A stretch of 32,000 bases of DNA from Pseudomonadota bacterium (GTDB lineage: Bacteria > Pseudomonadota > Alphaproteobacteria > Caulobacterales > Hyphomonadaceae). Made by a program: the position numbers and the translations under genes. Position 1 is the first letter of the stretch. Each line of letters starts with the position of its first letter. This document shows, piece by piece, positions 7,006 to 27,391 of the stretch. The notes beneath the pieces were generated by a model, which saw only the letters and a program-made list of their open reading frames with translations, was not told where the DNA came from and searched no databases. The DNA lies in contig JBCBUL010000007.1 in NCBI GenBank assembly GCA_039818165.1, positions 1 to 32,000 on the forward strand, in the 5' to 3' direction.

Positions 7006-7041
7006 ATGTCGAAAAAGTTTGACATGTCGAAAATATTTGAC
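7006..7041 (+). repeat. Two tandem 18-bp direct repeats in the lysK / membrane-protein divergent intergenic region
   Basis: ATGTCGAAAAAGTTTGAC (7006-7023) and ATGTCGAAAATATTTGAC (7024-7041) are 16/18 identical. Each unit carries TGTC-N10-GACA-type partial dyad symmetry and a TTGAC(A/C) -35-like hexamer. Confidence 0.7.
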
Positions 7042-7046
7042 CATAT

Positions 7047-7068
7047 GGTGTACAAGATCTTTTACACC
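7047..7068. promoter_or_regulatory. 22-bp near-perfect palindrome, candidate operator of the downstream XRE regulator
   Basis: GGTGTACAAGATCTTTTACACC matches its reverse complement at 20/22 positions. It ends 3 bp before the SD (AAAGGAGAA) of the 7082 gene. Confidence 0.5.
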
Positions 7069-7081
7069 AAAGGAGAACGCG

Positions 7082-7507
7082 ATGTCGTTCCGCGAACAAT
7101 CTGCATGGGCTATGGGCCTTATCCTCACGGTTGCCGGGCTGCTCTACTTCGGCAAAGTCTTCGCTGCGAGCCAAGCGCTTGGCGCCACCGCACCGCCAAT
7201 CATCGCATTTGTTGTGATTTATGTTGTTCTGGTGGTGATTGCTTCGATCATTGTCATGTCGCCTTTGGCGGCCTTCCAGGCCGAGGCGGCCAACGCCCCC
7301 GCCGATGAGCGCGAGCGGATCATTCTGAACCAGGCCAGAAACTGGGCCGGCTACGTTCTGGCCTTCGGTGTGGCGACGGGCCTGTTCCACTTCTGGGTCC
7401 AGAGGGATGGTAACATGCTGTTCCACATCGCCTTTGCGAGCCTGATGGCGAGTCAGATCAGCGAATACGCTTTTCAGATTTTCCTCTATCGTCGGGGACA
7501 TGCCTGA
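7082..7507 (+). CDS. Small integral membrane protein (4 predicted TM helices), function unknown
   Basis: ATG at 7082 with AAAGGAGAA upstream. Four hydrophobic stretches are visible ([60 protein letters not shown]). TGATG stop/start overlap with the following XRE gene. Confidence 0.7.
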
Positions 7508-7734
7508 TGGCCAAGCGCCCGCCAATCACCAACCGCGTGCGCGAACTGCGCGAGGCCCACGGCAATATGAGCCAGGCGGCCCTGGCAAAGGCCATAGGTG
7601 TCACCCGCCAAACAGTGATTGCCATCGAGCAGGGGAAATACTCGCCCAGCTTGGAAAGCGCCTTCCGAATCTCACGCGTTTTCGGCGTTGGCCTTGAAGA
7701 TGCCTTCGGCTGGGCGCCCTCCGAGGACGGCTAG
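7507..7734 (+). CDS. XRE-family helix-turn-helix transcriptional regulator (short, y4mF/YozG-like)
   Basis: ITNRVRELREAHGNMSQAALAKAIGVTRQTVIAIEQGKYSPSLESAFRISRVFGVGLEDAF is a textbook HTH_XRE domain. 75 aa. Confidence 0.88.
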   Translation: MAKRPPITNRVRELREAHGNMSQAALAKAIGVTRQTVIAIEQGKYSPSLESAFRISRVFGVGLEDAFGWAPSEDG

Positions 7735-7758: not shown

Positions 7759-7788
7759 TTGACACTCATTCGCATTTGAGTCTCTAAT
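7759..7788 (+). promoter_or_regulatory. Sigma70-type promoter candidate for bfd (TTGACA-N18-TCTAAT)
   Basis: TTGACA at 7759-7764 and TCTAAT at 7783-7788. The predicted TSS is about 7795-7797, i.e. at the bfd ATG (7797). No SD is visible upstream of that ATG. Confidence 0.45.
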
Positions 7789-7792
7789 TGCG

Positions 7793-7811
7793 AACGATGA
7801 TCATTTGCGTT
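7793..7811. promoter_or_regulatory. Fur-box-like palindromic site overlapping the bfd start
   Basis: GAACGATGATCATTTGCGT contains the perfect palindrome ATGATCAT. The core CGATGATCATTTGC matches 10/14 to TGATAATCATTATC of the classical Fur box. Flanking TTCGCA (7769-7774) and TGCGAA (7789-7794) form another inverted repeat. Confidence 0.4.
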
Positions 7812-7997
7812 TGCCGCCGTTTGAATGAAGAAGCCGTCCGCGAGGCCGTTCGCGCCGGCGCAGGGTCGCCGAAAGCGGTCCAGGCCCACCATGGCTGCCA
7901 ATTCAATTGCGGGAAATGCAAACCGGCCATGGCTGACATCGTTGCGAGTGAACAACGCCAACTGACTGAGGGCGCTATGCATGTCGCTGCTGAATAG
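7797..7997 (+). CDS. bfd: Bacterioferritin-associated ferredoxin (Bfd, [2Fe-2S])
   Basis: MIICVCRRLNEEAVREAV...HHGCQFNCGKCKPAMADIV shows the C-x-C...C-x2-C Bfd signature. It lies directly upstream of bfr. ATG 7797 is preferred to the track's TTG at 7788. Confidence 0.85.
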   Translation: MIICVCRRLNEEAVREAVRAGAGSPKAVQAHHGCQFNCGKCKPAMADIVASEQRQLTEGAMHVAAE

Positions 7998-8118
7998 CGA
8001 TTGAGACTGCAACTGCGTTTCAAATTCACAACTTCCTGTTTTAATTGGCTTTTCTATTGTCGCTCGGGGAGAGTCGGCCTAGTTCGGCCGTGTGAGCGAA
8101 CCTTTTAGGAGACCGGCC

Positions 8119-8610
8119 ATGAATGGCGATCAAGAAATTCTCGATTATCTGAATGCGGCGCTGAAAAATGAGCTGACCGCGATCAATCAGTACTTCCTGC
8201 ACTCGCGCATGCTCAAGGATTGGGGCGTCTCAATCCTCGCGGAGTATGAGTACAAGGAATCCATTGAAGAAATGGAGCATGCAGACTGGCTGATTGAGCG
8301 TATCCTCTTCCTGGGCGGACTGCCGAATTTGCAGGACCTTGGCCGTTTACGCATTGGCGAAAGCGTCAGGGAAATCCTGGAATGCGACCTTGCGCTCGAA
8401 AACGACGCCATCCCGCTGCTGCGAGACGCGATGGAAGCCAGCGAGAAAAAGCGCGACTACGTTTCCCGCGACCTGTTCGGCAAGATCCTCACCAATGAGG
8501 AGGAGCATCTGGACTATCTGGAAACCCAGTTTGAGCTCATCGACCGCGTCGGCATCGAAAACTATACGCTGTTGCAGTCTGCACCAAACGGCAGCCAGGC
8601 GCAGGACTAG
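8119..8610 (+). CDS. bfr: Bacterioferritin
   Basis: MNGDQEILDYLNAALKNELTAINQYFLHSRMLKDWG...ESIEEMEHADWLIERILFLGG...EEEHLDYLETQ carries the ferroxidase-centre residues and the haem-ligand Met context. ATG at 8119 with AGGAGA upstream. Confidence 0.95.
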   Translation: MNGDQEILDYLNAALKNELTAINQYFLHSRMLKDWGVSILAEYEYKESIEEMEHADWLIERILFLGGLPNLQDLGRLRIGESVREILECDLALENDAIPLLRDAMEASEKKRDYVSRDLFGKILTNEEEHLDYLETQFELIDRVGIENYTLLQSAPNGSQAQD

Positions 8611-8616
8611 CCTGAC

Positions 8617-8883
8617 CTAAGCAGCTCGGCGCTCATCCACAATCTCAGACAGGGTGACGCCGAGTTCGCCATCGGCGATCACCAGACGACCCCGCGCCAT
8701 AAGCCGGTCAGACACATAAATATCCACGTCGTCTCGCGTGTCGTTCTGCAGCGCCACCACATCGCCCGGCGCGAGGGCCAGCAATTCCTCAACCGGCATG
8801 CGGACGTCTCCCAGAACCACGTCGACCCGCACGGGCACATCCATCAGCTTGCGCTCGAGGGCAGGATTGGCGGCATGAGTCAT
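8617..8883 (-). CDS. fliN: Flagellar motor switch protein FliN (SpoA domain only, 88 aa)
   Basis: VPVRVDVVLGDVRMPVEELLALAPGDVVALQNDTRDDVDIYVSDRLMARGRLVIADGELGVTLSEIV matches the FliN/SpoA C-terminal domain pattern. It is the last gene of a fliF-fliG-x-fliN chain. Confidence 0.85.
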   Translation of the reverse strand: MTHAANPALERKLMDVPVRVDVVLGDVRMPVEELLALAPGDVVALQNDTRDDVDIYVSDRLMARGRLVIADGELGVTLSEIVDERRAA

Positions 8884-8907
8884 GGAATGGGGCTCCGAAA
8901 ACGCAGA

Positions 8908-9333
8908 TTACCGTCCAGATGTGTCTGTCAAAGATTTACAAGCGGCAAACAAATCGCCCTGACCATCGGCAAGGGATTGCGCCGCACGCTCGGCAACCGG
9001 AACCAACGTGGGTGGCACCTGCCCCATGCGGGCGGCAAGGTCGAGGGCGACGGCGAGCTCCGACAATTGTTCCATGGCCGCTGAAAGGCGCTCCGCAGCG
9101 CTTTCAATCCGTTTGGCTATGGCATCATCAATGGGTGCACGGGCCGCTTCTGTCGCCTGCGCCTGTAGCTGAGCGCCAAGGGCGGCGATCTCCATCACGG
9201 GCAGAGTGACGGTGTCCTCGTCGATCGAGGACGGGGCGGTCTGCACGGGAGTTTCGACAGGGGCTTTGCCCGGCGCGGAGAAATCCGAATGGAAATCAAA
9301 AGCGCGAAACTGGGTGATCTGACGCCGGCTCAT
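8908..9333 (-). CDS. Hypothetical flagellar-operon protein in the FlbE/FliH position (141 aa, Ala/Glu-rich, predicted helical)
   Basis: The call is positional only. It sits between fliG and fliN like flbE in the Caulobacter fliF operon, and its start overlaps the fliG stop (ATGA at 9330-9333). I recognised no diagnostic motif. Confidence 0.55.
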   Translation of the reverse strand: MSRRQITQFRAFDFHSDFSAPGKAPVETPVQTAPSSIDEDTVTLPVMEIAALGAQLQAQATEAARAPIDDAIAKRIESAAERLSAAMEQLSELAVALDLAARMGQVPPTLVPVAERAAQSLADGQGDLFAACKSLTDTSGR

Positions 9334-10271
9334 TCCACGAGCTCGTCATCATCGCTGGGTGTCCCCAGAAGAATATCTCCGGAGTGGATCAGCTGACGCG
9401 CGGTTTCGACAATGGCGGCACGTGCAGTCTGGACATCGGAGGCACGAATAGGCCCCATCGCCTCAATTTCCTCACGGATCAGCGCACCGGCCCGACGCGT
9501 GAGATTTGAATAGAACGCGTTGCTCACTTCAGGCGTACTGGCTTTCAGAGCTTTGATCAGCGTCTCGCGGGGCATTGCGGCGATGAGGGTCTGCATACCC
9601 GCCGCATCCAATGCGACCAGATCATCAAACGTGAACATCAGTGCGCGAACACGCTCACCCGCCCCCGGCGCAGACGCGTCGAGTTGGGTCAGAAGTCCGC
9701 TATCCTGGCACGGATCAAGTTGATCAAAAATACGCGCCAGACGGGCATGACCATCCATATCCGCGGTCGTCCCGACACGGTCCAGCGTTTGTGCCAGCGA
9801 TGTCTCAATGAGATCGCATACTGCTTTTGGTGGGCTCTTGGCATTCAGAATGCGCTTGAGAATGGCCAGGCTCACATCCTCACTCAGCATACGAACAACA
9901 CCAGCCGCCAGCTGGGGGTCCAGTTGGCTGATCAGCCACGCCGAGACTTGCGGGCTCTCCCGGCCGGCGAGGGCCGCAAGCAGAGGCGCGTGGGCTTTGG
10001 ACAACCGTCCCCAAACGCCCGGGCGCTCGGGCGTCGGTGTGTCAATTCGGGTTTTTGCGGTTTCGAGGAGAAACGCCTCGAGCGCGGAACGGTCCGCATC
10101 AGAATGATCAGTTGGCAGATGATCCATCTGCTGGTGGATGGCGCGGGTCTCCCCGGGTGTCAATTGGGCGAACACCATGTCTGCGCCAGACCCGGCTGCG
10201 CGCAGCAATTGAGCCACAGCGCGCAAACCGCCGGGATGCGATGATCCACGCAGGGCGTCGGGCGGGGTCAT
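9330..10271 (-). CDS. fliG: Flagellar motor switch protein FliG
   Basis: N domain: LRAVAQLLRAAGSGADMVFAQLTPGETRAIHQQM. Middle domain: ESPQVSAWLISQLDPQLAAGVVRMLSEDVSLAILKRI. C domain: MFTFDDLVALDAAGMQTLIAAMPRETLIKALKAS...NLTRRAGALIREEIEAMGPIRASDVQTARAAIV. ATG at 10271 overlaps the upstream stop (ATGA). Confidence 0.9.
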   Translation of the reverse strand: MTPPDALRGSSHPGGLRAVAQLLRAAGSGADMVFAQLTPGETRAIHQQMDHLPTDHSDADRSALEAFLLETAKTRIDTPTPERPGVWGRLSKAHAPLLAALAGRESPQVSAWLISQLDPQLAAGVVRMLSEDVSLAILKRILNAKSPPKAVCDLIETSLAQTLDRVGTTADMDGHARLARIFDQLDPCQDSGLLTQLDASAPGAGERVRALMFTFDDLVALDAAGMQTLIAAMPRETLIKALKASTPEVSNAFYSNLTRRAGALIREEIEAMGPIRASDVQTARAAIVETARQLIHSGDILLGTPSDDDELVE

Positions 10272-10915
10272 GTATCGATCACCCGAGACCCAAGCCAACG
10301 GCGCACAATTTGTGTCGCGCGGGCGGGATCTTCAGAAATGCGTTGGGCGATCAGATTGTGGGCGGCACTACGGTCAACCGGAGAGCTATCCTGAGGTTTA
10401 ACTGACTGCCGGAGAGACTGTTCGTTTCGAGCCGGCTGTGGCACCGGCGTCTCCACAGCCATGGCCGCGCCAATCAGTATACAAAGCGAGACGAGCGCGA
10501 ACACTTCAAGAAGCGCAGCACGATTTGGCAAGCCGCCCGTTGCACTGGCAAAGGCGACACGATCGAACGTTACGGTATCGCCAGCCACCGTATCGACAAA
10601 TACCGCTGACGTCAGAAGCTGGGTCAACGCCGCATCGCCCGGATCGGCATTGCTGGCTTGGGTATTGATCATCACCAGAAACGCCCGGCTCTCATCCGGG
10701 CGCAGCGCTTGGTGAACCTGAACCTGCCCCTGGCCCAAAACGGTTTCCAAAAGCCCGGTCAGTCTCTGTTCAAGCGGGGAAGCGCCCACCATCTGGGCAG
10801 GCGGCTGTGGATTGGAAAAGGCTGTCGCCGCGCGCAGTCCGGTCAGCCCGAGCGCCAGGACAAGCGCCAAGGCCAGCCAGACCGTGCGTCGGTTCATACT
10901 GGCGGCTGACATCAT
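10268..10915 (-). CDS. fliF: Truncated-architecture FliF-like MS-ring protein ('mini-FliF', 216 aa; 231 aa if started at 10963)
   Basis: Layout: TM1 (VWLALALVLALGLTGL), then one RBM-like unit (LEQRLTGLLETVLGQGQVQVHQAL...AFLVMIN...LTQLLTSAVFVDTVAGDTVTF), then TM2 (LLEVFALVSLCILIGAAMAV), then a cytoplasmic tail ending ISEDPARATQIVRRWLG like the FliG-binding C-terminus of FliF. Start 10915 has GGAG 7 nt upstream; alternatives are 10963, 10912 and 10897. Confidence 0.7.
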   Translation of the reverse strand: MMSAASMNRRTVWLALALVLALGLTGLRAATAFSNPQPPAQMVGASPLEQRLTGLLETVLGQGQVQVHQALRPDESRAFLVMINTQASNADPGDAALTQLLTSAVFVDTVAGDTVTFDRVAFASATGGLPNRAALLEVFALVSLCILIGAAMAVETPVPQPARNEQSLRQSVKPQDSSPVDRSAAHNLIAQRISEDPARATQIVRRWLGSRVIDT

Positions 10916-10980
10916 CGCGGCACTCCACAGCGGTGCACCGGAACGTTCCGGCGCTCGCCACAAAGCCTTAAGCCGCCACG

Positions 10981-10996
10981 GTAAATCCGCCCTTAA
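10981..10996 (-). promoter_or_regulatory. CtrA-box-like site upstream of mini-fliF
   Basis: The minus strand reads TTAA-GGGCGGA-TTTAC, an 8/9 match to TTAA-N7-TTAAC. It is centred about 74 bp upstream of the 10915 start. Confidence 0.4.
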
Positions 10997-11029
10997 TCAT
11001 CGCGACGTGTGCCCCTGCGACGACTAAAC

Positions 11030-11296
11030 CTAACGGTACTGCTGAAGGCGCGTTGCGCGCAGTCCTTTGGTGCCGTGGGCACTGTAGAGGCGTTGCCATC
11101 CGGAGAATTCTTCCTCTGACAGTCCATAGCGCTCCAGGGCGTCTTCCAACGTCAGCAATCCACCCTGCACAGCGGCCACAACTTCGGCCTTGCGGCGCGT
11201 CACCCAGCGGGTGATCGACGGAGGGGGGAGGTCATCAAGGGTGAGCGCGCGGCCGTTGGGTCCGCTGACACTCGACGAGGCATTCTGCTGTTCCAT
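11030..11296 (-). CDS. sciP: CtrA inhibitor SciP (DUF1153 family small HTH protein)
   Basis: GPNGRALTLDDLPPPSITRWVTRRKAEVVAAVQGGLLTLEDALERYGLSEEEFSGWQRLYSAHGTKGLRATRLQQYR closely follows the SciP/DUF1153 pattern as I remember it. Start at ATG 11296 (MEQQ...); the track's 21 upstream codons were rejected. Confidence 0.8.
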   Translation of the reverse strand: MEQQNASSSVSGPNGRALTLDDLPPPSITRWVTRRKAEVVAAVQGGLLTLEDALERYGLSEEEFSGWQRLYSAHGTKGLRATRLQQYR

Positions 11297-12879: not shown

Positions 12880-14823
12880 ATGTTGAAACAATCGCTGATT
12901 TTGAGTGCTGCGACGCTGATGTTAACGGGCGTTGCAGCCGGACAAGTGACAACAGAAGCGGACGCGGACACCCCCTGCCTGACCGGAAATGAAGCCGGTT
13001 GCGAAGATTGGATTATGGTGGGCACACGCCTGCAAACGGTGACGGTGTCTGGCCTGCGTCCAGTCGCGGTCAATGATGTGACAGGTAGCCTGACGGTCTT
13101 GAGCGGTGCGGACCTGGACCTTCGCTCAGCGCCTTTTCTTGCAGACGAATTGCGCGCTGTGCCTGGGGTTGGCGTGTCGCGATCCGGCGCGCAAGGCGGG
13201 CTGACGCAAATCCGCCTGCGCGGCGCCGAAGCAAACCACACACTGCTCCTCATCGACGGTATCGAAGTGTCCGACCCAACGACGGGCGAGAGCGATTTCG
13301 GTGTGTTCGCCGGGTTGCGGCCCCAAAGCATCGAAGTGCTGCGGGGCGAACAGAGCGGGCTGTATGGCTCTGATGCCATCGGCGGAGTGATCAATGTGGT
13401 GACGGGTGAGCTGCCCGGGCCACTCGGACGGGTCGAGGTTGGCTCCCAATCCTCTTTCCGGGGAGAGGCGGGCTATGGATTCGTCTTTGACGAAGGGCAC
13501 CTCAACCTCGCAGCGACGACCTTCTCGACCGGCGGTGTCGACACATCTGGCCTCGGCGGTGAAGAGGATGGCTCGGAGCTTTCCACGGCCACGGCGTCTG
13601 GGCGGGTGGATCTGTCAGGCGACTGGACCCTGGCAGGGTTGGTACGGTTTTCAGAGGGTGAATTAGAAACCGATCCCGACACCGACTTCGACGGACGACT
13701 GAATGATGCGGACCGCGTAACCGAGAGCGAACAGCTGACCGCTGGCGTCAGCCTCGCCGGCGAAGCGTTCGGCATTGATCACCTCCTACGCGCAAGCTTC
13801 AATTCGGTTGAGCGAGACAATTTCGCCGATGGCGCGCTCTCCAACAGGTCCGAGGGTGAGCGTACCAAATTCGGCTACAGCCCGAGCATTCAGGCAGCGC
13901 TTACCGATGCGCATATCACGCTGACCGGGCTCATCGAGTACGAAAACGAGGACTATTCGGCCCGCGACACGCAGTTTGGAGGCGCAACCGATCAGGACCA
14001 GAGTTTCGAGACGCTGGGGCTGGCTGGGGACGTGCAGGCCGATTTCGATGCGCTGCAACTGTCGGCGTCCATCCGTTTCGATGACAATGATGGCCGGTTT
14101 GACGATGCCGTCACCGGCCGGATCGGCGCAGCGTTCACGACCTATGCGGCGGGGCGCTTTCGCGCAAGCATCGGGACGGGCGTGAAAAACCCGACCTTTA
14201 CCGAACTGTTCGGCTTCTTTCCGGGCAGCTTTGTCGGCAATCCGGACCTGGTGCCTGAAGAATCCACCAGTTGGGAAATTGGCTGGGATGGCGCCTTTGG
14301 CCCGCTGGACCTTTCGGCAGCCTATTTCGATGCGCAGCTGACAGATGAAATCTTCACGGACTTCAATCCGGATTTCACGGCCACAGCGCGCAACCGCGAA
14401 GGCGAAAGCGAACGCTCCGGCGTGGAACTGGGCGCACGCTGGCAGGCAACTTCGGCGTTGAGCATCGCCGGGCAAGCCACATTCACCGAGTCCAGCTCAG
14501 AGGATGGCAGCGACGAAGTCCGGGTCCCCTCCGAAACCGCGAGCCTGGCCCTCGACTACCGGCCCGCTGACTGGAAGGGCGGGCGCATTGGCGTCGCATT
14601 TGATTATGTCGGCGAGCAGGACGATTTCGATTTCGCGGCATTCCCCGCCGCCCGCGTTACGCTGGACAGTTACGTGCTTGCCAGCGCAACGCTGGAAGTG
14701 CCGATGGGTGAGCGATTGGCGTTTACCCTGCGCGGGGAAAACCTGTTCGATGAAGATGCAACCGATGTCTTCGGGTTCACCTCGCCGGGTGCGGGTCTGT
14801 TTGTTGGAATAAAGGTCCGGTAA
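12880..14823 (+). CDS. btuB: TonB-dependent outer-membrane receptor, cobalamin-type (BtuB)
   Basis: Signal peptide, then plug-domain motifs (LRAVPGVGVSRSGAQGGLTQIRLRGAEANHTLLLIDGIEVSDP, IEVLRGEQSGLYGSDAIGGVINV). 647 aa, preceded by a B12 riboswitch. Confidence 0.88.
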   Translation: MLKQSLILSAATLMLTGVAAGQVTTEADADTPCLTGNEAGCEDWIMVGTRLQTVTVSGLRPVAVNDVTGSLTVLSGADLDLRSAPFLADELRAVPGVGVSRSGAQGGLTQIRLRGAEANHTLLLIDGIEVSDPTTGESDFGVFAGLRPQSIEVLRGEQSGLYGSDAIGGVINVVTGELPGPLGRVEVGSQSSFRGEAGYGFVFDEGHLNLAATTFSTGGVDTSGLGGEEDGSELSTATASGRVDLSGDWTLAGLVRFSEGELETDPDTDFDGRLNDADRVTESEQLTAGVSLAGEAFGIDHLLRASFNSVERDNFADGALSNRSEGERTKFGYSPSIQAALTDAHITLTGLIEYENEDYSARDTQFGGATDQDQSFETLGLAGDVQADFDALQLSASIRFDDNDGRFDDAVTGRIGAAFTTYAAGRFRASIGTGVKNPTFTELFGFFPGSFVGNPDLVPEESTSWEIGWDGAFGPLDLSAAYFDAQLTDEIFTDFNPDFTATARNREGESERSGVELGARWQATSALSIAGQATFTESSSEDGSDEVRVPSETASLALDYRPADWKGGRIGVAFDYVGEQDDFDFAAFPAARVTLDSYVLASATLEVPMGERLAFTLRGENLFDEDATDVFGFTSPGAGLFVGIKVR

Positions 14824-15638
14824 TGGCTTGGCGGGCCGCACTTCTACCCGTCATTTGGTTGGCAGCGGCCTGCGGGTCGCCCCAGCCAGCGCCGGAACGG
14901 TCGGCCACGCCAACGCGCATCGTAAGCCTTGATTATTGCGCAGACCAGTTTGTGCTCAAATTTGCCGATCCGAGTGACATCCTCGCTGTCTCGCCCGATG
15001 CCGGGAAAGACTTCTCGTTCATGCGCGAGGCCGCGGCAGATGTGGCCCGGGTGCGCCCATCAGCGGAGGACGTTCTTCTTCTGAAGCCGGATCTCGTGGT
15101 GCGAGCTTATGGCGGCGGACCGGGTGCAACAGCCCTTTTCGAGCGCGTGGGGATCCCAGTGCTGGAAGTGGGATGGTCCCCCGATCTGGAGGCCGTCAGA
15201 ACGAATACGCTGCGCGTGGCAAAGGGCCTGGGCCAGGCAGATCGGGGCGTCGAAGTGGTGGAAGATTTCGATGCACGGATAGCAGAAATAAATTCCGCGG
15301 AGACGGCAACGGCGCTCTACGCCACGCCCGGTGGTGCAACCACGGGACCGGGCGGGCTCATCGGCGAAATTTTGGAACAGGCGAACCTAGACAATTTCAT
15401 TGAAACGCCTGGCTGGCAAACCCTCCCTCTCGAGCGATTGGCATATGAAGGGCCGGATGTGTTTGTTTTCGCCGATTTCGAAGGCGGTGCTGGCCCCTGG
15501 AGTGCGGCACGCCACAGCGTTTTCCGAAACCGTATGGACGCTGCTGAGGTGCGCGAGATCGAAGGCGCATGGACGGCTTGCGGTGGCTGGTTTGTCATCG
15601 AAGCTATTGAAACCCTGACGGAGACATGGGCGCCATGA
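14823..15638 (+). CDS. btuF: Periplasmic-binding protein of a cobalamin/iron-complex ABC importer (BtuF-like), predicted lipoprotein
   Basis: Lipobox LAAAC at residues 13-17. RIVSLDYCADQFVLKF...LKPDLVV is typical of class 8 PBPs. TAATG overlap with the btuB stop. Confidence 0.75.
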   Translation: MAWRAALLPVIWLAAACGSPQPAPERSATPTRIVSLDYCADQFVLKFADPSDILAVSPDAGKDFSFMREAAADVARVRPSAEDVLLLKPDLVVRAYGGGPGATALFERVGIPVLEVGWSPDLEAVRTNTLRVAKGLGQADRGVEVVEDFDARIAEINSAETATALYATPGGATTGPGGLIGEILEQANLDNFIETPGWQTLPLERLAYEGPDVFVFADFEGGAGPWSAARHSVFRNRMDAAEVREIEGAWTACGGWFVIEAIETLTETWAP

Positions 15639-16627
15639 CCCGGGCTGACTGGCTCATACCCGGCCTGGCCGCTGCCTGTGTCTTCGCACTCTTTCTGGCC
15701 TGCCTCTTGGGCTCAACACCAATGGGACTGGATAGGGTGTTCGCGGCGCTGCTTGGCGGGGGTGAGCCCGGCGACCGGACCGTGATCTGGGAGATTCGAC
15801 TCCCACGTGCTCTGGCCGCCTTCCTTGTGGGCGCCGCCCTGGGTGTGAGCGGAGCCGCCTTGCAGGGTCTTTTGCGAAACCCCTTGGCGGAACCCGGCGT
15901 GCTCGGCGTTTCGGCGTCCTCAGCGCTGACGGCAACCGTCTCAATTTATTATGGAATGGCGGCGCTAACGCCTTGGATGCTTCCCCTGGCGGCGATCGTT
16001 GGAGCGCTTCTGGCCACAGGACTGTTGGCTTTTGCCGCCATCAAAACACAATCGGTCGTCACGCTGATCCTGATTGGGGTAGGTCTTTCGAGCTTTGCAG
16101 GCGCGTTGATGAGCCTGCTCATGAATTTGGCACCCAACCCGTTCACCCTGTCAGACATGGTCAGCTGGATGCTTGGCTCTGTCGCCAATCGCAGCCATTC
16201 TGACATCGCTTTCGCAGCCCCTTTCCTGGCACTCGGAGCCGGAGTCCTGCTGGCGACACGTCGGGGCCTTTCCGCGCTCACCCTCGGTGAAGAGGCTGCC
16301 GCCGGATTGGGGCTAAATCTTCGAAACCAACGCATATTCACCGTCTTGGGCGCGGGGCTGGCCACCGGGGCGTCCGTAGCGCTCGCCGGGGCCATAGGGT
16401 TCGTCGGCATTGTTGCCCCCCATCTGGTGCGCCCACTGGTAGGCCATGACCCGGCTCGCACACTGCTTCCATCGGCGCTTCTTTCCGGACTGATCCTCGT
16501 TCTGGCCGATATTGCCGTGCGTTTGCTGCCCACCAGCCAGGAGTTGAAACTGGGTGTGGTTGCCGCGCTGATCGGCGCCCCGGCCTTTATTTGGATCGCC
16601 ATGCAAAGGCGGGCGCTCAATGACTGA
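15626..16627 (+). CDS. btuC: FecCD-family ABC permease (BtuC-like)
   Basis: IWEIRLPRALAAFLVGAALGVSGAALQGLLRNPLAEPGVLGVS and GAIGFVGIVAPHLVR are FecCD signatures. It overlaps both neighbours. Confidence 0.85.
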   Translation: MGAMTRADWLIPGLAAACVFALFLACLLGSTPMGLDRVFAALLGGGEPGDRTVIWEIRLPRALAAFLVGAALGVSGAALQGLLRNPLAEPGVLGVSASSALTATVSIYYGMAALTPWMLPLAAIVGALLATGLLAFAAIKTQSVVTLILIGVGLSSFAGALMSLLMNLAPNPFTLSDMVSWMLGSVANRSHSDIAFAAPFLALGAGVLLATRRGLSALTLGEEAAAGLGLNLRNQRIFTVLGAGLATGASVALAGAIGFVGIVAPHLVRPLVGHDPARTLLPSALLSGLILVLADIAVRLLPTSQELKLGVVAALIGAPAFIWIAMQRRALND

Positions 16628-17378
16628 ACTGGTGGCTGAAGGGATCTGCGTTGACGCAGGCGAAAGACACTTGGTGAAGACGGCCAGCTTCCGCCTATCG
16701 CCCAGAGAACTTGTTGCGATCGTCGGGCCGAATGGAGCCGGAAAAACCAGCTTGCTCCGCGCGGCGCTTGGCCTCGTCTCCCCCAGCTCTGGCCAGGCCT
16801 CGCTGAACGGTGTGAATGTGCACGATCTCAGCGCCATGGACCGGGCAAGACAGGTGGCCTACCTGCCCCAAACTCGGCCTCTCGCCTGGCCAAGCCGTGT
16901 GCGCGACATCGTTGCCCTTGGGCGATTCAGCCATGGTGCGGCTCCGGGACGATTAAAAGGCGCTGATGCCGAAGCCGTCGACCGCGCGCTTAAAGCCGCA
17001 GACCTCACTGAACGGGCCGACCGAACCAGCGATACACTGTCTGGCGGAGAACTCGCCCGAATGCACTTCGCACGCGCCGTTGCCACAGAAGCGCCACTGC
17101 TGATTGCCGATGAGCCTGTCGCCGCCCTTGATCCGCGCCACCAGTTTCGAACGCTAGATCTGATCCAGGACTTTGTAGCGCGGGGTGGCGGGGCACTAGT
17201 TGTGCTCCACGATTTGAACCTGGCCGCGCGTTACGCCTCGCGCCTGATCTGGATGCAGGATGGTGCAATCATCGCTGATGGTGCGCCTGGCAAAACGCTT
17301 ACACCCGAACGAATTCGAACTGTTTTCGGCCTGAATGCCCAGATTTCGCCAGAAGGCGTACTCCTTACGCCGCCTTGA
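16620..17378 (+). CDS. btuD: ABC transporter ATP-binding protein (BtuD/FecE-like)
   Basis: Walker A GPNGAGKTS, signature LSGGELARM, Walker B LLIADEPVAALD, H-loop VLHDLN. Confidence 0.88.
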   Translation: MTELVAEGICVDAGERHLVKTASFRLSPRELVAIVGPNGAGKTSLLRAALGLVSPSSGQASLNGVNVHDLSAMDRARQVAYLPQTRPLAWPSRVRDIVALGRFSHGAAPGRLKGADAEAVDRALKAADLTERADRTSDTLSGGELARMHFARAVATEAPLLIADEPVAALDPRHQFRTLDLIQDFVARGGGALVVLHDLNLAARYASRLIWMQDGAIIADGAPGKTLTPERIRTVFGLNAQISPEGVLLTPP

Positions 17379-22465: not shown

Positions 22466-23530
22466 TCAAGAGGCAATGGTGATCTTGCGGCCGTGGGGAT
22501 CTGCATGGGCGATCACGCGGCGGTGCCCGCCCGGCCAGGTGACAAGGTCAACCGGATGGGCATTGGAACTTCCGTTGGGAACGAAAACCCGCTCCGGTTC
22601 GAATCTGAGCCAGGCAAGGCGCTGGGTCTCATTGGCCCCCGCACCAGCTCTCTCAATAGCGGCGGAAGCCCGCTCATGGGTTTGCCGATCAAAGTATTGC
22701 CACGCAATTGAATGGTAAATCACCGTGGTGCCAACGGGGAGCGTGCCAGCCAATTGGGTCTCCAACCAATCGGCAGCATCGGCCTTGTCCACGGAGATCC
22801 CACGGTGTCGGGCCAATTCCGTCGCGGCGCGAACGCGCTCAAGCCTGTCAGTCTGGTCGGGCCAGATGTACGCCTGAAGCGCAAGACGCGCGTCCGGGTC
22901 TTCTATGTCGAGTGGTGACTGGTCACAGGCCTTCCGGCTTTCGATCTGGAATGTCGCCGGAAGGGCTGGGGCCGCACCCTCCCACGCGCTGGAGATGACC
23001 GGTGCACCGGGCGCCCCTTCACGCGTCCAGTGGCCTCCGTCATACCCAAACGCGTCCCAATGCTGGTTCAGGCCCGCACTGGCGCCGATTTCGAGCAGAT
23101 GGAGCGGTCCCTCCAACGTTGCGAACCCCGGCAGGAGCGCGATTGAACGGCGGGTTTCGTTGGTCTGGGGTGTGTTTTTTAGGAACGCCGCCACCCAACC
23201 TCGATGGGTCTCCAGCGCTGCGTAGACTGCCGGAAGTGTCTCGGTCATGTCCCAATCGGGGCGCTGGGTCGGATACTGCCGGGCTAGCGCCTCATCTTTC
23301 CCAGACAGAACCAGGGCGTGGAGCGCACCGGCAACACGTAGTGGGCCCGCATCTGCCGCGTTGGGCTGCAACGGCGCGTCACCACTCAGCAGGCCATCCA
23401 GAACAGAACCATTGCCAAGCTGCGCCGCTAGGCCCCGCAGCAAAGCCGCGTTGAACGGCGAGCCGAGCCGCTCGCACCATTCGGCCTGTTTGTTAAAGTG
23501 GGCGGCGTGTTTCGACAGAGAATCTGACAT
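22466..23530 (-). CDS. DUF2332-like protein with a class I methyltransferase-like motif
   Basis: N-terminus FNKQAEWCERLGSPFNAALLRGLAAQL fits my memory of DUF2332. HLLEIGASAGLNQ resembles SAM-MTase motif I. Start is uncertain: ATG at 23530, or TTG at 23548 overlapping the cysH stop. Confidence 0.75.
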   Translation of the reverse strand: MSDSLSKHAAHFNKQAEWCERLGSPFNAALLRGLAAQLGNGSVLDGLLSGDAPLQPNAADAGPLRVAGALHALVLSGKDEALARQYPTQRPDWDMTETLPAVYAALETHRGWVAAFLKNTPQTNETRRSIALLPGFATLEGPLHLLEIGASAGLNQHWDAFGYDGGHWTREGAPGAPVISSAWEGAAPALPATFQIESRKACDQSPLDIEDPDARLALQAYIWPDQTDRLERVRAATELARHRGISVDKADAADWLETQLAGTLPVGTTVIYHSIAWQYFDRQTHERASAAIERAGAGANETQRLAWLRFEPERVFVPNGSSNAHPVDLVTWPGGHRRVIAHADPHGRKITIAS

Positions 23531-23544
23531 CGCGGCGAGCGATA

Positions 23545-24294
23545 TCAAAAAACCCGGGGGCGGTCTTCCTTATCCACGTGCAGGCCGCACTCGGTCTTTT
23601 CCATGCCCGCCCAACGGCCGGACCGAATATCGCCGGGGTCCTCTGCCGGCCGCGTGCATGGCCAGCATCCGATCGATGGATAGCCCTGGGCGACAAGCGG
23701 GTGCTTTGGCAGGCCTCGCTGGTGGAAGAACAGGTCGACATCGCCCTGGGTCCAGCTCGCAAGCGGGTTCACTTTGAAACGGCCACTTGCATGTTCGAAA
23801 ACAGGCAAGCTAAGCCGGGCGCCCCCATGGAAGCGCTTGCGCCCCGTGATCCAGGCACTGAATCCCTCAAGGGCTGGTTCCAGTGGACGCACCTTGCGCA
23901 GTGCACAGCACGCATCCGGATCGGACTTATGCAGGCCGCCCTTGGCGTCTTGAGCAGCCCGCTCCGCTTCATCAGGCGTGATGTTACGCACGCCGGTCAG
24001 GCCCAGCCTTTCGATCAACTGGTCGCGGTAGTCCAGCGTCTGCGGAAAATGCATGCCGGTTTCGAGGAAGATGATCGGCAGGTCAGGCTTTACGTCGGCG
24101 ATCAAGGCCAGCATGACGGCGCTTTCCGCACCGAAACTGGATACATAGGTGAGCTCGCCGGGCCACTCGCGCAGCATGGCGACGCGCAAAATGGTCTGGG
24201 CCGACGCCTCGCGCAACTCGCCGTTCAAGCGCGCGAGTTTATCGGTCACGGGCTCATCGGCGCGGCTGATCACATCGGCATAGGCCACTGGCAA
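23545..24294 (-). CDS. cysH: Assimilatory adenylyl-sulfate (APS)/PAPS reductase; the Fe-S Cys pattern favours the APS-reductase type
   Basis: SSFGAESAVMLALIAD, then IIFLETGMHFPQT, then DACCALRKVRPL, then SIGCWPCT, then KTECGLH. The CC...CxxC cysteines are characteristic of [4Fe-4S] APS reductases. Confidence 0.93.
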   Translation of the reverse strand: MPVAYADVISRADEPVTDKLARLNGELREASAQTILRVAMLREWPGELTYVSSFGAESAVMLALIADVKPDLPIIFLETGMHFPQTLDYRDQLIERLGLTGVRNITPDEAERAAQDAKGGLHKSDPDACCALRKVRPLEPALEGFSAWITGRKRFHGGARLSLPVFEHASGRFKVNPLASWTQGDVDLFFHQRGLPKHPLVAQGYPSIGCWPCTRPAEDPGDIRSGRWAGMEKTECGLHVDKEDRPRVF

Positions 24295-24302
24295 AACCTT
24301 CC

Positions 24303-24749
24303 TTAGCGCCTGTGTCTGGCGGCAAAAACAGTCTGCGCGCCGTCGGCGGCAGGCTGGTAGAAGGAGGAAAATTCCCCCATCGCTTCTAGGAAGGAAGGTA
24401 GGTCAGCACGGGTCGTCTCGTAAGCGTCAAACCCTGAACGGTGCATATAGAGAAGCTGATCCCTCAACACATGGCCCACCGCGCGGAGCTCTCCGGTAAA
24501 CTCCAAACGCCGCCTCAAGAGCTGCGCCTGGCTGTAGCCGCGTCCATCGGTGTATTTCGGGAAGTCCACTTCGATGCGCGCCAGAGAACCAAGGTATGGC
24601 GTCAAAACCGCCGGATCGTCCTCGGGTGAAAGCCGCACTCCGAATGCGGAATTCTGCGCGATCAAAGCGTCAGCAGCTTCGAGAAACTCGGCAAGCGTGT
24701 AGCTGGGTGTATCATCCTCGGCAGCAACGCCGTCCCTAATCAACGGCAT
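24303..24749 (-). CDS. DUF934-family protein (usual companion of cysI/cysH)
   Basis: IEVDFPKYTDGRGYSQAQLLRRRLEFTGELRAVGHVLRDQLLYMHRSGFDAY is the conserved DUF934 core. The ATG at 24749 overlaps the cysI 3' end by 14 nt. Confidence 0.8.
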   Translation of the reverse strand: MPLIRDGVAAEDDTPSYTLAEFLEAADALIAQNSAFGVRLSPEDDPAVLTPYLGSLARIEVDFPKYTDGRGYSQAQLLRRRLEFTGELRAVGHVLRDQLLYMHRSGFDAYETTRADLPSFLEAMGEFSSFYQPAADGAQTVFAARHRR

Positions 24750-26394
24750 AGACAGCCTCCTTGAATGCATCTATGCCGACGCGTTCGAAAACATCGATAA
24801 AAGGCTCATTTGGCCCGGATCTGAGATCTTTGTATCGCTCCACCACACGCCTCAACGCCGGTGGGACGTCCTCAGCGCGCAGGCCCGGGCCTACAATCTC
24901 GCCGATGGCCGCCTTCTCATCTGCACGTCCGCCAAAGGTGATCTGGTAGAATTCCTCACCTTTCTTATCGACGCCGAGAATGCCGATATGGCCGACATGG
25001 TGGTGGCCGCAGGCATTGATACATCCGGATATGTTGATGTGCAGCTTGCCGATGTCGGCCTGGTCCTCATAGCTTGAGAATTCGCGGGCAATCTCCTGAC
25101 TGATGGGGATCGAGCGGGCATTGGCCAGGTTGCAGTAATCGAGGCCCGGGCACACGATCATATCGCTGATCAGGCTCTCATTCGGCGCTGCGAGACCGGC
25201 CGCATCCATGGCGCGGTAGACGTCATAGACATCGTCTAGTGCAACATGGGGCAGGACAACATTCTGGGCATGGGTGACGCGGATGTCTGAGTGGCCAAAT
25301 TTCTCAGCAAGGTCCGCAACAGCCTCCATTTGGACATCAGTTGCATCGCCCGCAATCCCGCCCACAGGTTTATGGCTGGCGGTAACAGACGTGTATCCGG
25401 AAACTTTATGTGGGTGCAGGTTCGCTGTTGCCCATAGGGCAAACGCCGGGTCGGCGGCCTTCGCGCGTTCGAACGCATCGCTGGTGGCTTGCTTCTCTGC
25501 GAGCTCAGGCGGCGTGAAATAGGCTTGGATCCGATCGATCTCGCTCTGTGGAAGCTCGATCTTCTCCGCATCGCGCTGGGCGGCGAAATCTTCTTCCACC
25601 AGGCGTTTGAACTCTTCCTCGCCGGTCTCGGTGACAAGGATCTTGATCCGCGCCTTGTACTTGTTGTCCCGGCGACCAAACCGGTTGTAGACACGCATGA
25701 TCGCTTCGAGATAGTCGAGCAGGTCCGCCTCCGGAACGAACTCATTCACCAGTACCGCGATGTGGGGTGTGCGACCCTGGCCGCCGCCCACGTGCACCTC
25801 AAAGCCGACTACGCCGTCCCGCTCACGCATATGCAGCCCGATATCGTGGACACGGATGGCTGCCCGGTCGTGTTCAGCCGCCGTCACGGCGATTTTGAAT
25901 TTGCGCGGCAGGAAGGCAAATTCCGGGTGGAACGTGCTCCACTGGCGAATAATCTCGCACCAAGGGCGCGGATCCATCACTTCGTCTGCAGCCGCGCCTG
26001 CGAAATGGTCGCTGGTCACATTGCGAATGCAATTGCCCGACGTCTGGATGGCGTGCATTTCCACATCTGCCAACTCGTCCAGCACATCGGGAATGTCTTT
26101 CAGGGCAACCCAGTTGAACTGGATGTTCTGGCGCGTCGTCCAGTGGCCATAGCCACGGTCATAGGTCCGCGCGATATGGGCGAATTTCCGCAGCTGGGTC
26201 GGGTTCAGCTGGCCATAGGGAATTGCCACACGCAGCATGTAGGCGTGCAGCTGGAGGTAGACCCCGTTCTGAAGGCGCAGGGGCTTGAACTCATCTTCCA
26301 GCAGCTCTCCGGAAAGGCGCCGCTCCACCTGGCCGCGGAACTGGTTCACCCGGTCGCGCACGATCTGAGCGTCGAATTCATCGTATCTGTACAT
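24736..26394 (-). CDS. cysI: Sulfite reductase hemoprotein (sirohaem/[4Fe-4S], NirA/CysI family)
   Basis: FKPLRLQNGVYLQ..., TTRQNIQFNWV, VCPGLDYCNLA and SGCINACGHHHVGHIGILG are nitrite/sulfite reductase signatures. Operon context with cysG and cysH. Confidence 0.93.
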   Translation of the reverse strand: MYRYDEFDAQIVRDRVNQFRGQVERRLSGELLEDEFKPLRLQNGVYLQLHAYMLRVAIPYGQLNPTQLRKFAHIARTYDRGYGHWTTRQNIQFNWVALKDIPDVLDELADVEMHAIQTSGNCIRNVTSDHFAGAAADEVMDPRPWCEIIRQWSTFHPEFAFLPRKFKIAVTAAEHDRAAIRVHDIGLHMRERDGVVGFEVHVGGGQGRTPHIAVLVNEFVPEADLLDYLEAIMRVYNRFGRRDNKYKARIKILVTETGEEEFKRLVEEDFAAQRDAEKIELPQSEIDRIQAYFTPPELAEKQATSDAFERAKAADPAFALWATANLHPHKVSGYTSVTASHKPVGGIAGDATDVQMEAVADLAEKFGHSDIRVTHAQNVVLPHVALDDVYDVYRAMDAAGLAAPNESLISDMIVCPGLDYCNLANARSIPISQEIAREFSSYEDQADIGKLHINISGCINACGHHHVGHIGILGVDKKGEEFYQITFGGRADEKAAIGEIVGPGLRAEDVPPALRRVVERYKDLRSGPNEPFIDVFERVGIDAFKEAVYAVD

Positions 26395-26450
26395 TTATTC
26401 TGATCCCCGCTTCGCTTCGCTTCGCGATTGATCGCGCTCAGGGCTGCTCA

Positions 26451-27074
26451 TCACCAATCCCCTGCATGGTCGAGGCCGAGGGCGGTTTCGGTGCGACGGA
26501 CCCATCGGCCCACAGCGGGAAACTCCGAGAGGTCGAAGCCACCAAGATGAGCGCGGCGCGTATAGGCGACCAGCGCCACATCAGCGAGCGTCATGGCCTC
26601 ACCCACCAGCCAGTCGGTGTATGTCAGCTGCATCTCCATGACGCCAAGCGCGCGGCGGCCCTTGGCGAGCAGATCCGGGTCCAGCTCATCTTCGGGAATG
26701 CCGCGATAATGCAGCCGGGAGATGCGAACGGCGATGTAGGGCTCATGGGAATATTGTTCCCAGAAGAGCCAACTCGTCATTTGGGCGCGCTCGAAATCGT
26801 CGGTCGGGATCAGGTCGCTTCCCGCCTGTTCCGCAAGATACAGCATAATCGCATTGGATTCCGGCAGGCGCCGCCCATCGGGCCACACCGCGAGCGGGAC
26901 AAGGCCTACCGGATTCAGGGCGAGGAAATCGTCGGTTTGGGTTTCACCCTTGAAGATATCGACCTCAACCCAGTCGTAATCGAGACCAAGTGCATCGGCG
27001 GTCCAGCGCGGCTTCATGCAGTTGCCGCTCTGGGAATTGCCATAGAGGGTGAGTTTTGTGGGCAGGTCGGCCAT
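26451..27074 (-). CDS. Glutathione S-transferase family protein embedded in the cys operon
   Basis: LTLYGNSQSGNCMKPRWTADALGLDYDWVEVDIFKGETQTDDFLALNPVGLVPL is the N-terminal GST domain. WLVGEAMTLADVALVAY is the C-terminal domain. The start shares one base with the DUF2849 stop (TGATG at 27072-27076). Confidence 0.85.
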   Translation of the reverse strand: MADLPTKLTLYGNSQSGNCMKPRWTADALGLDYDWVEVDIFKGETQTDDFLALNPVGLVPLAVWPDGRRLPESNAIMLYLAEQAGSDLIPTDDFERAQMTSWLFWEQYSHEPYIAVRISRLHYRGIPEDELDPDLLAKGRRALGVMEMQLTYTDWLVGEAMTLADVALVAYTRRAHLGGFDLSEFPAVGRWVRRTETALGLDHAGDW

Positions 27075-27391
27075 CAGGCGCCTCCTGATTTGGCAAAGTG
27101 CGGATGAACGGTGGGCCCTTCGGCGCGAATGCGCTCGCGCAGGGTTTCGCGCCCTGCAATGGAGCCTTCAGCCGTGACTTCCATGAAATACGGGTCGGTC
27201 ACGCGCCCCTCCTGCGCCTCGGCAGCCGACAATGCGGCCTCGGCTGCGTCATCCGTGAACACGCCGATCGCTTTCGGGTCAGGTGACCAATCGCCGGCCT
27301 CGGTCATGTAAATGACCTCGCCTGTCGCCGTGTCCCAGGCAGTGACAGTCTTCGGGGTCTCAGGTTTCAGTTTTGGGCGAACCGATGTCAT
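27074..27391 (-). CDS. DUF2849-family protein (usual companion of cysG/cysI in Alphaproteobacteria)
   Basis: VTAWDTATGEVIYMTEAGDWSPDP...DPYFMEV fits DUF2849 as I remember it. ATGA overlap with the cysG stop (27388-27391). Confidence 0.8.
   Translation of the reverse strand: MTSVRPKLKPETPKTVTAWDTATGEVIYMTEAGDWSPDPKAIGVFTDDAAEAALSAAEAQEGRVTDPYFMEVTAEGSIAGRETLRERIRAEGPTVHPHFAKSGGA

Follow-up and report, generated by a model that had tools for sequence, protein, structure and literature searches.

A shortened, sciP-linked fliF-fliG-fliH-fliN cluster in Hyphomonadaceae as a candidate export-less FliG/FliN scaffold

The first 32,000 nucleotides of contig JBCBUL010000007.1 (assembly GCA_039818165.1, a Hyphomonadaceae bacterium), referred to below as the window, contain a compact cluster of four genes related to flagellar rotor and switch genes, located next to sciP. 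The cluster encodes a short FliF-like protein (hereafter mini-FliF), FliG, a FliH-like protein of 141 amino acids (aa) and FliN. The features of the locus are as follows.

11030..11296, minus strand: sciP, 88 aa from the ATG at 11296, with the open reading frame (ORF) open to 11359; CtrA inhibitor, a DUF1153 helix-turn-helix (HTH) protein.
10982..10996, minus strand: CtrA-box-like motif TTAAGGGCGGATTTA (TTAA-N7-TTTA) within the 114-bp sciP/mini-fliF spacer; presumed function.
10268..10915, minus strand: mini-FliF, 215 aa from the ATG at 10915; FliF by profile searches.
9330..10271, minus strand: FliG, 313 aa, with N, middle and C domains.
8908..9333, minus strand: mini-FliH-like protein, 141 aa, in the fliH/flbE position.
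8617..8883, minus strand: FliN, 88 aa, a bare SpoA (FliMN_C) domain.

The four rotor genes are tightly chained. Direct reading of the sequence places ATGA stop/start overlaps at 10271-10268 and 9333-9330, and a 24-bp gap containing GGAG separates the gene for the 141-aa protein from fliN. The mini-fliF ORF (10268-10963) would encode 231 aa from an upstream TTG; public assemblies call the 215-aa ATG form. The bfr gene is convergent to fliN, with 6 bp between its stop at 8610 and that of fliN. The window proteins were scanned against the Pfam and NCBIfam libraries, and no further flagellar gene was found among the annotated proteins of the 32-kb window, the remaining content being iron uptake, sulfate assimilation, lysS, purA, lpxR, queG and regulators. 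The preliminary description of this DNA had reported four chained minus-strand genes with two ATGA overlaps and a 24-bp gap, a convergent bfr and no other flagellar gene, and the ORF list, the direct reading, the coordinates and the library scans agree with it on each of these points. The sciP product is assigned by NCBIfam NF051866 CtrAInhibSciP (3e-38, 129.9 bits, above the cutoff of 100) and by a Pfam DUF1153 match (4e-37).

Mini-FliF matched no Pfam or NCBIfam model, the YscJ_FliF models included. Its close homologues are all 212-219 aa long, and a profile search of 1.84 billion representatives returned 134 clusters, nearly all of 205-235 aa; canonical FliFs of 509-557 aa match this profile via their last ~130-150 residues only. 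An hhalign comparison with 13 canonical alphaproteobacterial FliFs gave 98.5% probability at E 3e-15. In the alignment of the family hidden Markov models (HMMs), three segments are colinear: mini-FliF residues 40-75 with canonical FliF ~230-270, the start of the third ring-building motif (RBM3); residues 80-156 with ~375-470, the end of RBM3 and the second transmembrane helix (TM2); and residues 181-213 with the canonical C-terminal tail. Canonical residues ~50-230 (RBM1 and RBM2; Pfam PF01514) have no mini-FliF counterpart in this alignment, and the mini-FliF RBM3 core lacks the ~100-residue β-collar insertion. A sequence search of the PDB with mini-FliF returned FliF as the sole matches below 1e-3.

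The layout of mini-FliF thus delimited comprises TM1 (~9-34), an αββαβ motif representing the RBM3 core (~44-122), TM2 (~132-153), a variable linker and, at residues 186-210, a C-terminal tail of the FliG-binding type, ISEDPARATQIVRRWL. Both transmembrane helices are predicted by AlphaFold2 (AF2; 9-34 and 132-153), with the hydrophobic segments conserved across alignments, and the AF2 secondary structure reads H-αββαβ-H-HH in a model with a mean predicted local distance difference test (pLDDT) score of 56. A Foldseek search of the PDB with this model gave no match below E 1e-3; EscJ, PrgK and FliF were among the weak matches, and the result was not used as evidence. The tail motif EDPxxAAxIVRRWL is invariant in the mini-FliF family and can be aligned to the canonical, Salmonella and Vibrio FliF tails, the overall tail pattern being nearly identical to that of canonical FliFs. 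Judged by these profiles and alignments, the 215-aa protein is a genuine FliF derivative that has kept TM1, the RBM3 core, TM2 and the tail, with RBM1, RBM2 and the β-collar gone.

In the Salmonella membrane/supramembrane ring (MS-ring), RBM2 forms the inner ring around the export gate, RBM3 is the domain that makes the 34-mer S-ring, and the β-collar surrounds the rod. Compared with Salmonella FliF (PDB 6scn, 6sd1-6sd5, 7cg7), mini-FliF is predicted to have the same topology of a transmembrane helix, a periplasmic RBM, a second transmembrane helix and a cytoplasmic tail, and its sequence matches RBM3 residues 243-269 and 406-440 and tail residues 520-559. However, ~340 residues covering RBM1, RBM2 and the β-collar are absent from it. 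The injectisome protein SctJ (PrgK/EscJ) is likewise a small (~250 aa) membrane-anchored RBM ring protein, and weak sequence and fold echoes of it were found (E 0.06-0.4). SctJ, however, has two RBMs of the RBM1/RBM2 type, is anchored by a lipid and lacks a FliG-binding tail, whereas mini-FliF has one RBM3-type motif, two transmembrane helices and a FliF tail; membership in the SctJ family was rejected on the RBM type and the tail. A published hat-like structure related to the type III secretion system of flagella was also considered as a match and set aside, as it depends on export-gate proteins rather than FliF. Further short FliF-like proteins, of 289-345 aa, were encountered (P0143, P0163, P0166, P0174 and P0178), some of them annotated as FliF at source. 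P0143, as read from its sequence, has RBM3, collar and tail without RBM1 or RBM2; the five proteins look like intermediate truncations from unassigned lineages, and some may be partial genes.

The FliG of the window contains Pfam FliG_M (2e-11) and FliG_C (1e-30) matches, together with a FliG_N match that is below the cutoff and misplaced. The TIGR00207 score is 111.1 bits, under the equivalog cutoff of 226.7, and the NCBI name for mini-type FliGs is “FliG C-terminal domain-containing protein”. The FliG profile nevertheless covers full-length FliG structures (residues 8-306) and the FliF-binding N domain in the FliG-N/FliF complex (5tdy_B), and the AF2 model (pLDDT 74) matches full-length FliG at E 8e-12. 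Mini-type FliG is ~25-30 residues short of canonical FliG, at the N/M junction. The FliM-binding ExPQ motif is kept (ESPQ in the window FliG, EHPQ in the Hyphomonas sequence P0029), as are the R...EE charges of the torque helix (NLTRRAGALIREEI), and both are conserved across the clade. The torque-helix residues are those we take to correspond to E. coli R281, D288 and D289.

The 88-aa FliN has a Pfam FliMN_C (PF01052) match of 1e-21 over residues 12-82 and scores 76.3 bits with TIGR02480, slightly under its cutoff of 84.05. The 141-aa protein had no Pfam or NCBIfam match. Both of its ends are conserved, F(D/E)F(R/H)xDF at the N-terminus and DGQGDLF at the C-terminus, and it also has a helical region. 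An hhalign comparison with canonical alphaproteobacterial FliH aligned no more than the N-terminal ~100 residues, at 83% probability (E 9e-6), and an FxF(D)xxF motif is common to this protein and the canonical FliH N-terminus. The FliI-binding C-terminal domain (Pfam FliH, PF02108) was not matched in the window protein or in three orthologues, while two of the four canonical counterparts tested pass the cutoff of this model; the protein is ~100 residues too short to hold the domain. The 141-aa protein therefore weakly resembles the N-terminal half of FliH, probably without the part that binds FliI. Taken together, the gene assignments first made by eye have held: the FliF-like membrane protein of 216-231 aa is mini-FliF by profile searches (215 aa from the ATG), the FliG is complete in its N, middle and C domains by Pfam, profile coverage and model match, the helical protein said to sit in the flbE position occupies the FlbE/FliH slot by synteny, and the FliN consists of essentially the SpoA domain.

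In order to establish the distribution of the cluster, related loci were collected through a FliG alignment with one genome per species; the best 80 loci were kept and typed with custom HMMs. About 45 loci are of the mini type, with sciP, mini-FliF (211-236 aa), FliG (304-320 aa), the third-position protein (116-156 aa) and FliN (mostly 84-96 aa, counted where the ORF start was unambiguous). Their hosts are Hyphomonas (H. beringensis, H. jannaschiana, H. polymorpha, H. oceanitis and others), Henriciella (including H. mobilis) and Hyphomonadaceae metagenome-assembled genomes (MAGs). Wherever the upstream flank of a Hyphomonadaceae locus was recovered, sciP precedes the rotor genes. An assembly artefact as the origin of the short fliF was rejected, since the same short gene occurs in ~45 independent assemblies. 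The cluster had been called stand-alone and of a composition matching no described system; both statements were too strong for a set of genes that is family-wide in Hyphomonadaceae. Literature searches on Hyphomonas fliF/fliG, M-ring, short FliF and FliG paralogues found no published description of the mini cluster, and public annotation lists its genes as “hypothetical” and “FliG C-terminal domain-containing protein”.

Another 36 alphaproteobacterial loci have the arrangement [sciP]-fliF-fliG-fliH-fliN with long versions of the genes, and sciP is located upstream of a full-length fliF in 15 of them. Canonical-type hosts include Pedomonas, Pseudokordiimonas, Emcibacter, Micavibrio, Rhodothalassiaceae and Dongiaceae. 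In these loci FliF has 545-594 aa (complete copies), FliG 337-346 aa and FliN mostly 95-149 aa; the ORF in the FliH position has 215-283 aa in 34 of the 35 loci with an ORF there, the exception being L057 with only 78 aa. Seven canonical loci examined downstream contain a ~460-aa ORF (FlbD position), a ~700-aa ORF (FlhA position) and a ~350-aa ORF; in several canonical loci the latter and the next ORF are homologous to the FlhF-like and FlhG-like proteins of Hyphomonadaceae. The earlier suggestion of a sciP association and of synteny with the Caulobacter fliF operon is borne out by these 36 loci. The Caulobacter gene order given there, flbD followed by flhB, needs correction: the gene after flbD is flhA (CC_0910).

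The likeness of the window cluster to the Caulobacter-type class II operon (CC_0903, CC_0905-0910; L050-L088) lies in the gene order, the strand logic, the sciP neighbour and the CtrA-box-type motif, as well as in FliG and FliN, which are homologous throughout, and in the FliF tail, TM2 and RBM3 core. The differences are those of size and content: FliF has 215 aa here versus 545-594 aa there, the FliH-like protein ~130 aa without PF02108 versus 215-283 aa, FliG ~310 versus ~340 aa and FliN 88 versus 95-149 aa, and flbD and flhA are missing from the locus. As far as gene order and homology can tell, the window cluster is the positional orthologue of the classical alphaproteobacterial operon, but each of its genes is shorter and flbD and flhA have dropped out. 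In Hyphomonas and Henriciella, genes for a FlhF-like signal recognition particle GTPase and a MinD/FlhG-like ATPase and the ctrA gene follow the mini cluster (L007:13070-15720; the same region in L013-L051). In the sublineage of the window (the window, L002, L005 and L010-L012) the flhF-like, flhG-like and ctrA genes are not adjacent to it. The matches listed in a homology search with the FlhF-like proteins of Hyphomonadaceae all had at least 59% identity and came from Hyphomonas and Henriciella.

The mini-type FliGs form a monophyletic clade with a neighbour-joining bootstrap of 100/100, and this clade suggests a single origin of the mini-type cluster. The clade evolves faster than canonical FliG, and its members differ more from one another than do canonical FliGs drawn from several orders. 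In FliG the window is 97% identical to the MAG J06616_19 (GCA_038526245.1). A canonical fliF-fliG-fliH context on a 1.9-kb metagenome contig made sequence P0049 uninformative as a candidate for the FliG of the main flagellar cluster of Hyphomonadaceae.

The relationship of the mini cluster to a complete flagellar system can be followed in Hyphomonas neptunium, the best-studied relative. According to the supplements of Leicht et al. 2020 (PMC7200025), its main flagellar cluster spans HNE_0241-0276 and includes HNE_0241 fliL, HNE_0242 fliF, HNE_0243, HNE_0244 fliN, HNE_0245 fliP and HNE_0246 fliG, along with motB, fliI, flgB, flgC, fliE, fliQ, flhA (HNE_0273), fliR and flhB. HNE_0242 is annotated there as “flagellar M-ring protein” and covers 160 ten-bp bins, i.e., ~1.6 kb (~530 aa). 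In the same supplements HNE_1390 is sciP, HNE_1391 and HNE_1393 are hypothetical and HNE_1392 is a putative FliG. HNE_1389 (COG3173, kinase-like) is located upstream, and it was because the gene order, HNE_1389 included, matches that of the Hyphomonas locus L007 that HNE_1391-1393 were equated with the mini cluster. The tabulated wild-type expression of HNE_1391-1393 is 33-101 RPKM (reads per kilobase per million mapped reads), with a 1.5-2.1-fold increase in ΔdivJ at weak p-values (PMC7200025). The S10 Data of that paper also list HNE_0504, a “SPOA domain protein” bound by CtrA in chromatin immunoprecipitation sequencing (ChIP-seq), possibly a third FliN-like gene. The presumed H. neptunium arrangement has a partial parallel in genomes of the Rhodobacter sphaeroides fla1/fla2 type, in that two rotor gene sets are found per genome, one of them in the ancestral CtrA-linked context; it differs in that the second set is no complete system but a remnant of four rotor genes only, whose FliF and FliH are truncated. 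Two flagellar gene sets in one genome are known, R. sphaeroides fla1/fla2 being an example.

The spacer upstream of mini-fliF points to a possible regulatory link. No exact TTAA-N7-TTAA was found in the 32-kb window, and TTAAGGGCGGATTTA is the only match to it with at most one mismatch. A motif of the same form (TTAA-N7-TTTA, TTAA, TTAG or GTAA) is present in the same sciP/mini-fliF spacer in all related loci compared (49/49). CtrA may control the operon via this conserved box. In H. neptunium, S6 Data of PMC7200025 list a CtrA peak at sciP, peak_376 (1418956-1419699), 744 bp wide. This is about twice the width of the neighbouring peaks listed (321-404 bp, one of 595 bp), and the peak could take in a second site, at the box conserved in the sciP/HNE_1391 spacer.

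All four rotor genes are under purifying selection (dN/dS, the ratio of non-synonymous to synonymous substitution rates, 0.06-0.22). Medians were taken from unsaturated pairs with dS 0.05-0.7, as pairs up to dS 1.5 gave ratios inflated by saturation, and are as follows.

FliG: median dN/dS 0.06.
FliN: median dN/dS 0.07.
sciP: median dN/dS 0.08.
Mini-FliF: median dN/dS 0.22; RBM 0.14, tail 0.12.
141-aa protein: median dN/dS 0.21.

Between the window and its closest relative (L009), FliG has dN 0.014 and dS 0.18. Since orthologues exist in ~45 genomes and dN/dS is well below 1, chance ORFs are ruled out. The reading frames are intact and the junctions conserved in ~45 genomes, at mini-FliF identities down to 20%. 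The exceptions are found in MAG bins: a split fliG (240 + 75 aa) at L011:9983-10935 and a split mini-fliF (119 + 83 aa) at L058:2174-2868. In addition, the fliN ORF at L040:11364-12434 reads as 356 aa. Errors of assembly could explain the split and long ORFs in these three loci, as could genuine decay or fusion in particular lineages.

These data bear on the idea that the cluster is what remains, without function, of a flagellar system that was replaced, and that it survives by chance or through co-transcription with the essential sciP. Each gene is indeed shorter than its canonical counterpart, the clade evolves fast, a few MAG loci have split ORFs (L011 fliG, L058 mini-fliF), and the expression reported for the presumed H. 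neptunium copy is modest. Nonetheless, a relic is very unlikely given dN/dS values of 0.06-0.22, with the RBM and FliG-binding tail of mini-FliF below the value for the whole protein, given frames and junctions conserved down to 20% mini-FliF identity in ~45 genomes, and given the conserved upstream motif; the split ORFs are confined to metagenome bins and may be assembly errors. The argument that intact frames and translational coupling speak against simple decay is thereby strengthened. A relic had been expected to show itself by a separate full flagellar regulon together with relaxed selection or frameshifts in relatives: the former was found in H. neptunium, whereas the latter was not, dN/dS being low and the frames mostly intact.

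On a second explanation the cluster supplies the only rotor of the window organism: a 215-aa MS-ring protein would carry a working flagellum, or a reduced machine derived from one, and other proteins would do what RBM1, RBM2 and the collar do elsewhere. This would account for four intact, coupled genes under purifying selection in the window's own lineage and for the kept stator-facing and FliM-binding residues of FliG. Yet the parts of FliF that hold the export gate and rod and the part of FliH that holds FliI are all gone, flbD and flhA are absent from the locus with no other flagellar gene in the 32 kb, and in the supplements on H. neptunium the presumed equivalent coexists with full-length fliF, fliG and fliN in a complete regulon. 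Such a machine is accordingly very improbable. The preliminary description had left two readings side by side, the core of a normal flagellum on a radically shortened MS-ring protein or a repurposed membrane-anchored FliG/FliN scaffold; the full-length fliF, fliN and fliG of H. neptunium disfavour the former, and the latter is favoured here.

The losses are non-random: exactly those parts are gone by which a rotor connects with export gate, ATPase and rod. With a probability of roughly 0.55, the cluster can be read as a retained, export-less, membrane-anchored FliG/FliN scaffold with an accessory role beside a flagellum encoded elsewhere. This reading is preferred because of the selective losses, the purifying selection, the family-wide retention and the full regulon in the best-studied relative. 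An ancestral sciP-fliF-fliG-fliH-fliN class II operon would have been stripped of every part connecting to export or rod, keeping TM1, the RBM3 core, TM2 and the tail of FliF paired with FliG-N, as well as FliG-M, FliG-C, the SpoA domain of FliN and the N-terminus of FliH. Mini-FliF may oligomerise via its single RBM into a small inner-membrane ring, with its cytoplasmic tail recruiting FliG in a 1:1 ratio; FliG and FliN, with mini-FliH docked on FliN, would then form a scaffold resembling the cytoplasmic ring (C-ring). The operon would be expressed from the CtrA-box-type promoter downstream of sciP. The resulting module, lacking secretion and an axle, would act beside the complete flagellar system; its most plausible roles are those of a scaffold at the pole or for assembly, or of a platform for regulation.

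Several observations pull the other way. The mini-FliF model is of low confidence (pLDDT 56) and its fold search non-significant, and the FliH assignment of the 141-aa protein reaches only 83% probability. The stator-facing charges and the FliM-binding motif of FliG fit a working rotor at least equally well. The identity of HNE_1391-1393 with the mini cluster is itself deduced from gene order and annotation, these genes are marked “No” for CtrA binding in the H. neptunium ChIP-seq supplements (PMC7200025), and flagellar coexistence in the window organism is extrapolated from a relative whose FliG is ~40% identical.

Because the stator-facing residues are retained, two further ideas, joining the main motor and an own engagement of stators, are kept alive. 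In the first, the products would plug into the main motor as alternative or extra C-ring subunits, mini-FliF co-assembling with full-length FliF via RBM3 and adding further FliG-binding tails, and rotor size, switching, or cell-cycle-timed assembly and ejection would be tuned in this way. Its attraction lies in a FliG that keeps both the ExPQ motif and the torque-helix charges, in a mini-FliF tail pattern almost identical to that of canonical tails, in an RBM of the S-ring-forming RBM3 type, and in the expression shifts reported alongside other flagellar genes in a cell-polarity mutant (PMC7200025). The high divergence of the fast-evolving mini-type FliG clade from canonical FliG argues against it, and the co-inheritance and coupling of the four genes, with a FliF tail/FliG-N pair of their own, suggest that the products assemble with each other. 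Mixed rings would also be less obvious without the β-collar, which interlocks neighbouring RBM3 subunits. Incorporation into the main motor is on balance unlikely. The second idea, an autonomous axle-less rotor, is a long shot: a ring of mini-FliF, with nothing but the RBM3 core, would carry FliG and FliN and still engage MotAB-type stators via the conserved torque helix. Without export gate, rod or filament it would rotate in the inner membrane or respond there to ion flow, and under the control of the cell cycle it would organise the pole or act as a mechanosensor. Such a rotor might persist even without a flagellum in lineages such as that of the window.

The scaffold reading, if it holds, has consequences beyond this locus. 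FliF, FliG, FliH and FliN are normally studied only as flagellar parts, and a whole family keeping a stripped rotor set under selection is a natural experiment on what they are capable of by themselves. Mini-FliF delimits a natural minimal FliF (transmembrane helix, RBM3 core, transmembrane helix, tail), which may be useful for structural work on the coupling of MS-ring and C-ring. The locus would record the dismantling of an ancestral CtrA/SciP-linked flagellar locus while another flagellar set took over. Hyphomonas neptunium can be manipulated genetically, and cryo-electron tomography images of its motor already exist, so that the mini cluster is directly testable in this species. For genome annotation the cluster is a warning: its genes can readily be taken as a sign of a flagellum, or for its core, when they may be neither the one nor the other. 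The cluster is less singular than the preliminary description held, and it is of real interest to flagellar biologists.

The rotor cluster of the window is flanked by iron-handling genes, as it also is in L002, L005 and L090. On one side lies bfd-bfr (7788-8610, plus strand); on the other side, past lpxR, the region 12880-17378 (plus strand) encodes a TonB-dependent receptor and an iron-type ATP-binding cassette transporter with periplasmic-binding and FecCD components. Between lysS and bfd-bfr (7019-7734, plus strand), the genes for a 162-aa predicted membrane protein without a family match and for a 75-aa Xre-type HTH protein are tightly coupled, the first running up to the start of the second with base 7507 in common. 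A sulfate-assimilation block at 22466-28779 (minus strand) encodes a DUF2332 protein, a CysH-like phosphoadenosine phosphosulfate reductase, a DUF934 protein, a sulfite reductase haemoprotein, a glutathione S-transferase and sirohaem synthase; a LysR regulator adjoins the block, which is partly syntenic with the TARA relative L005.

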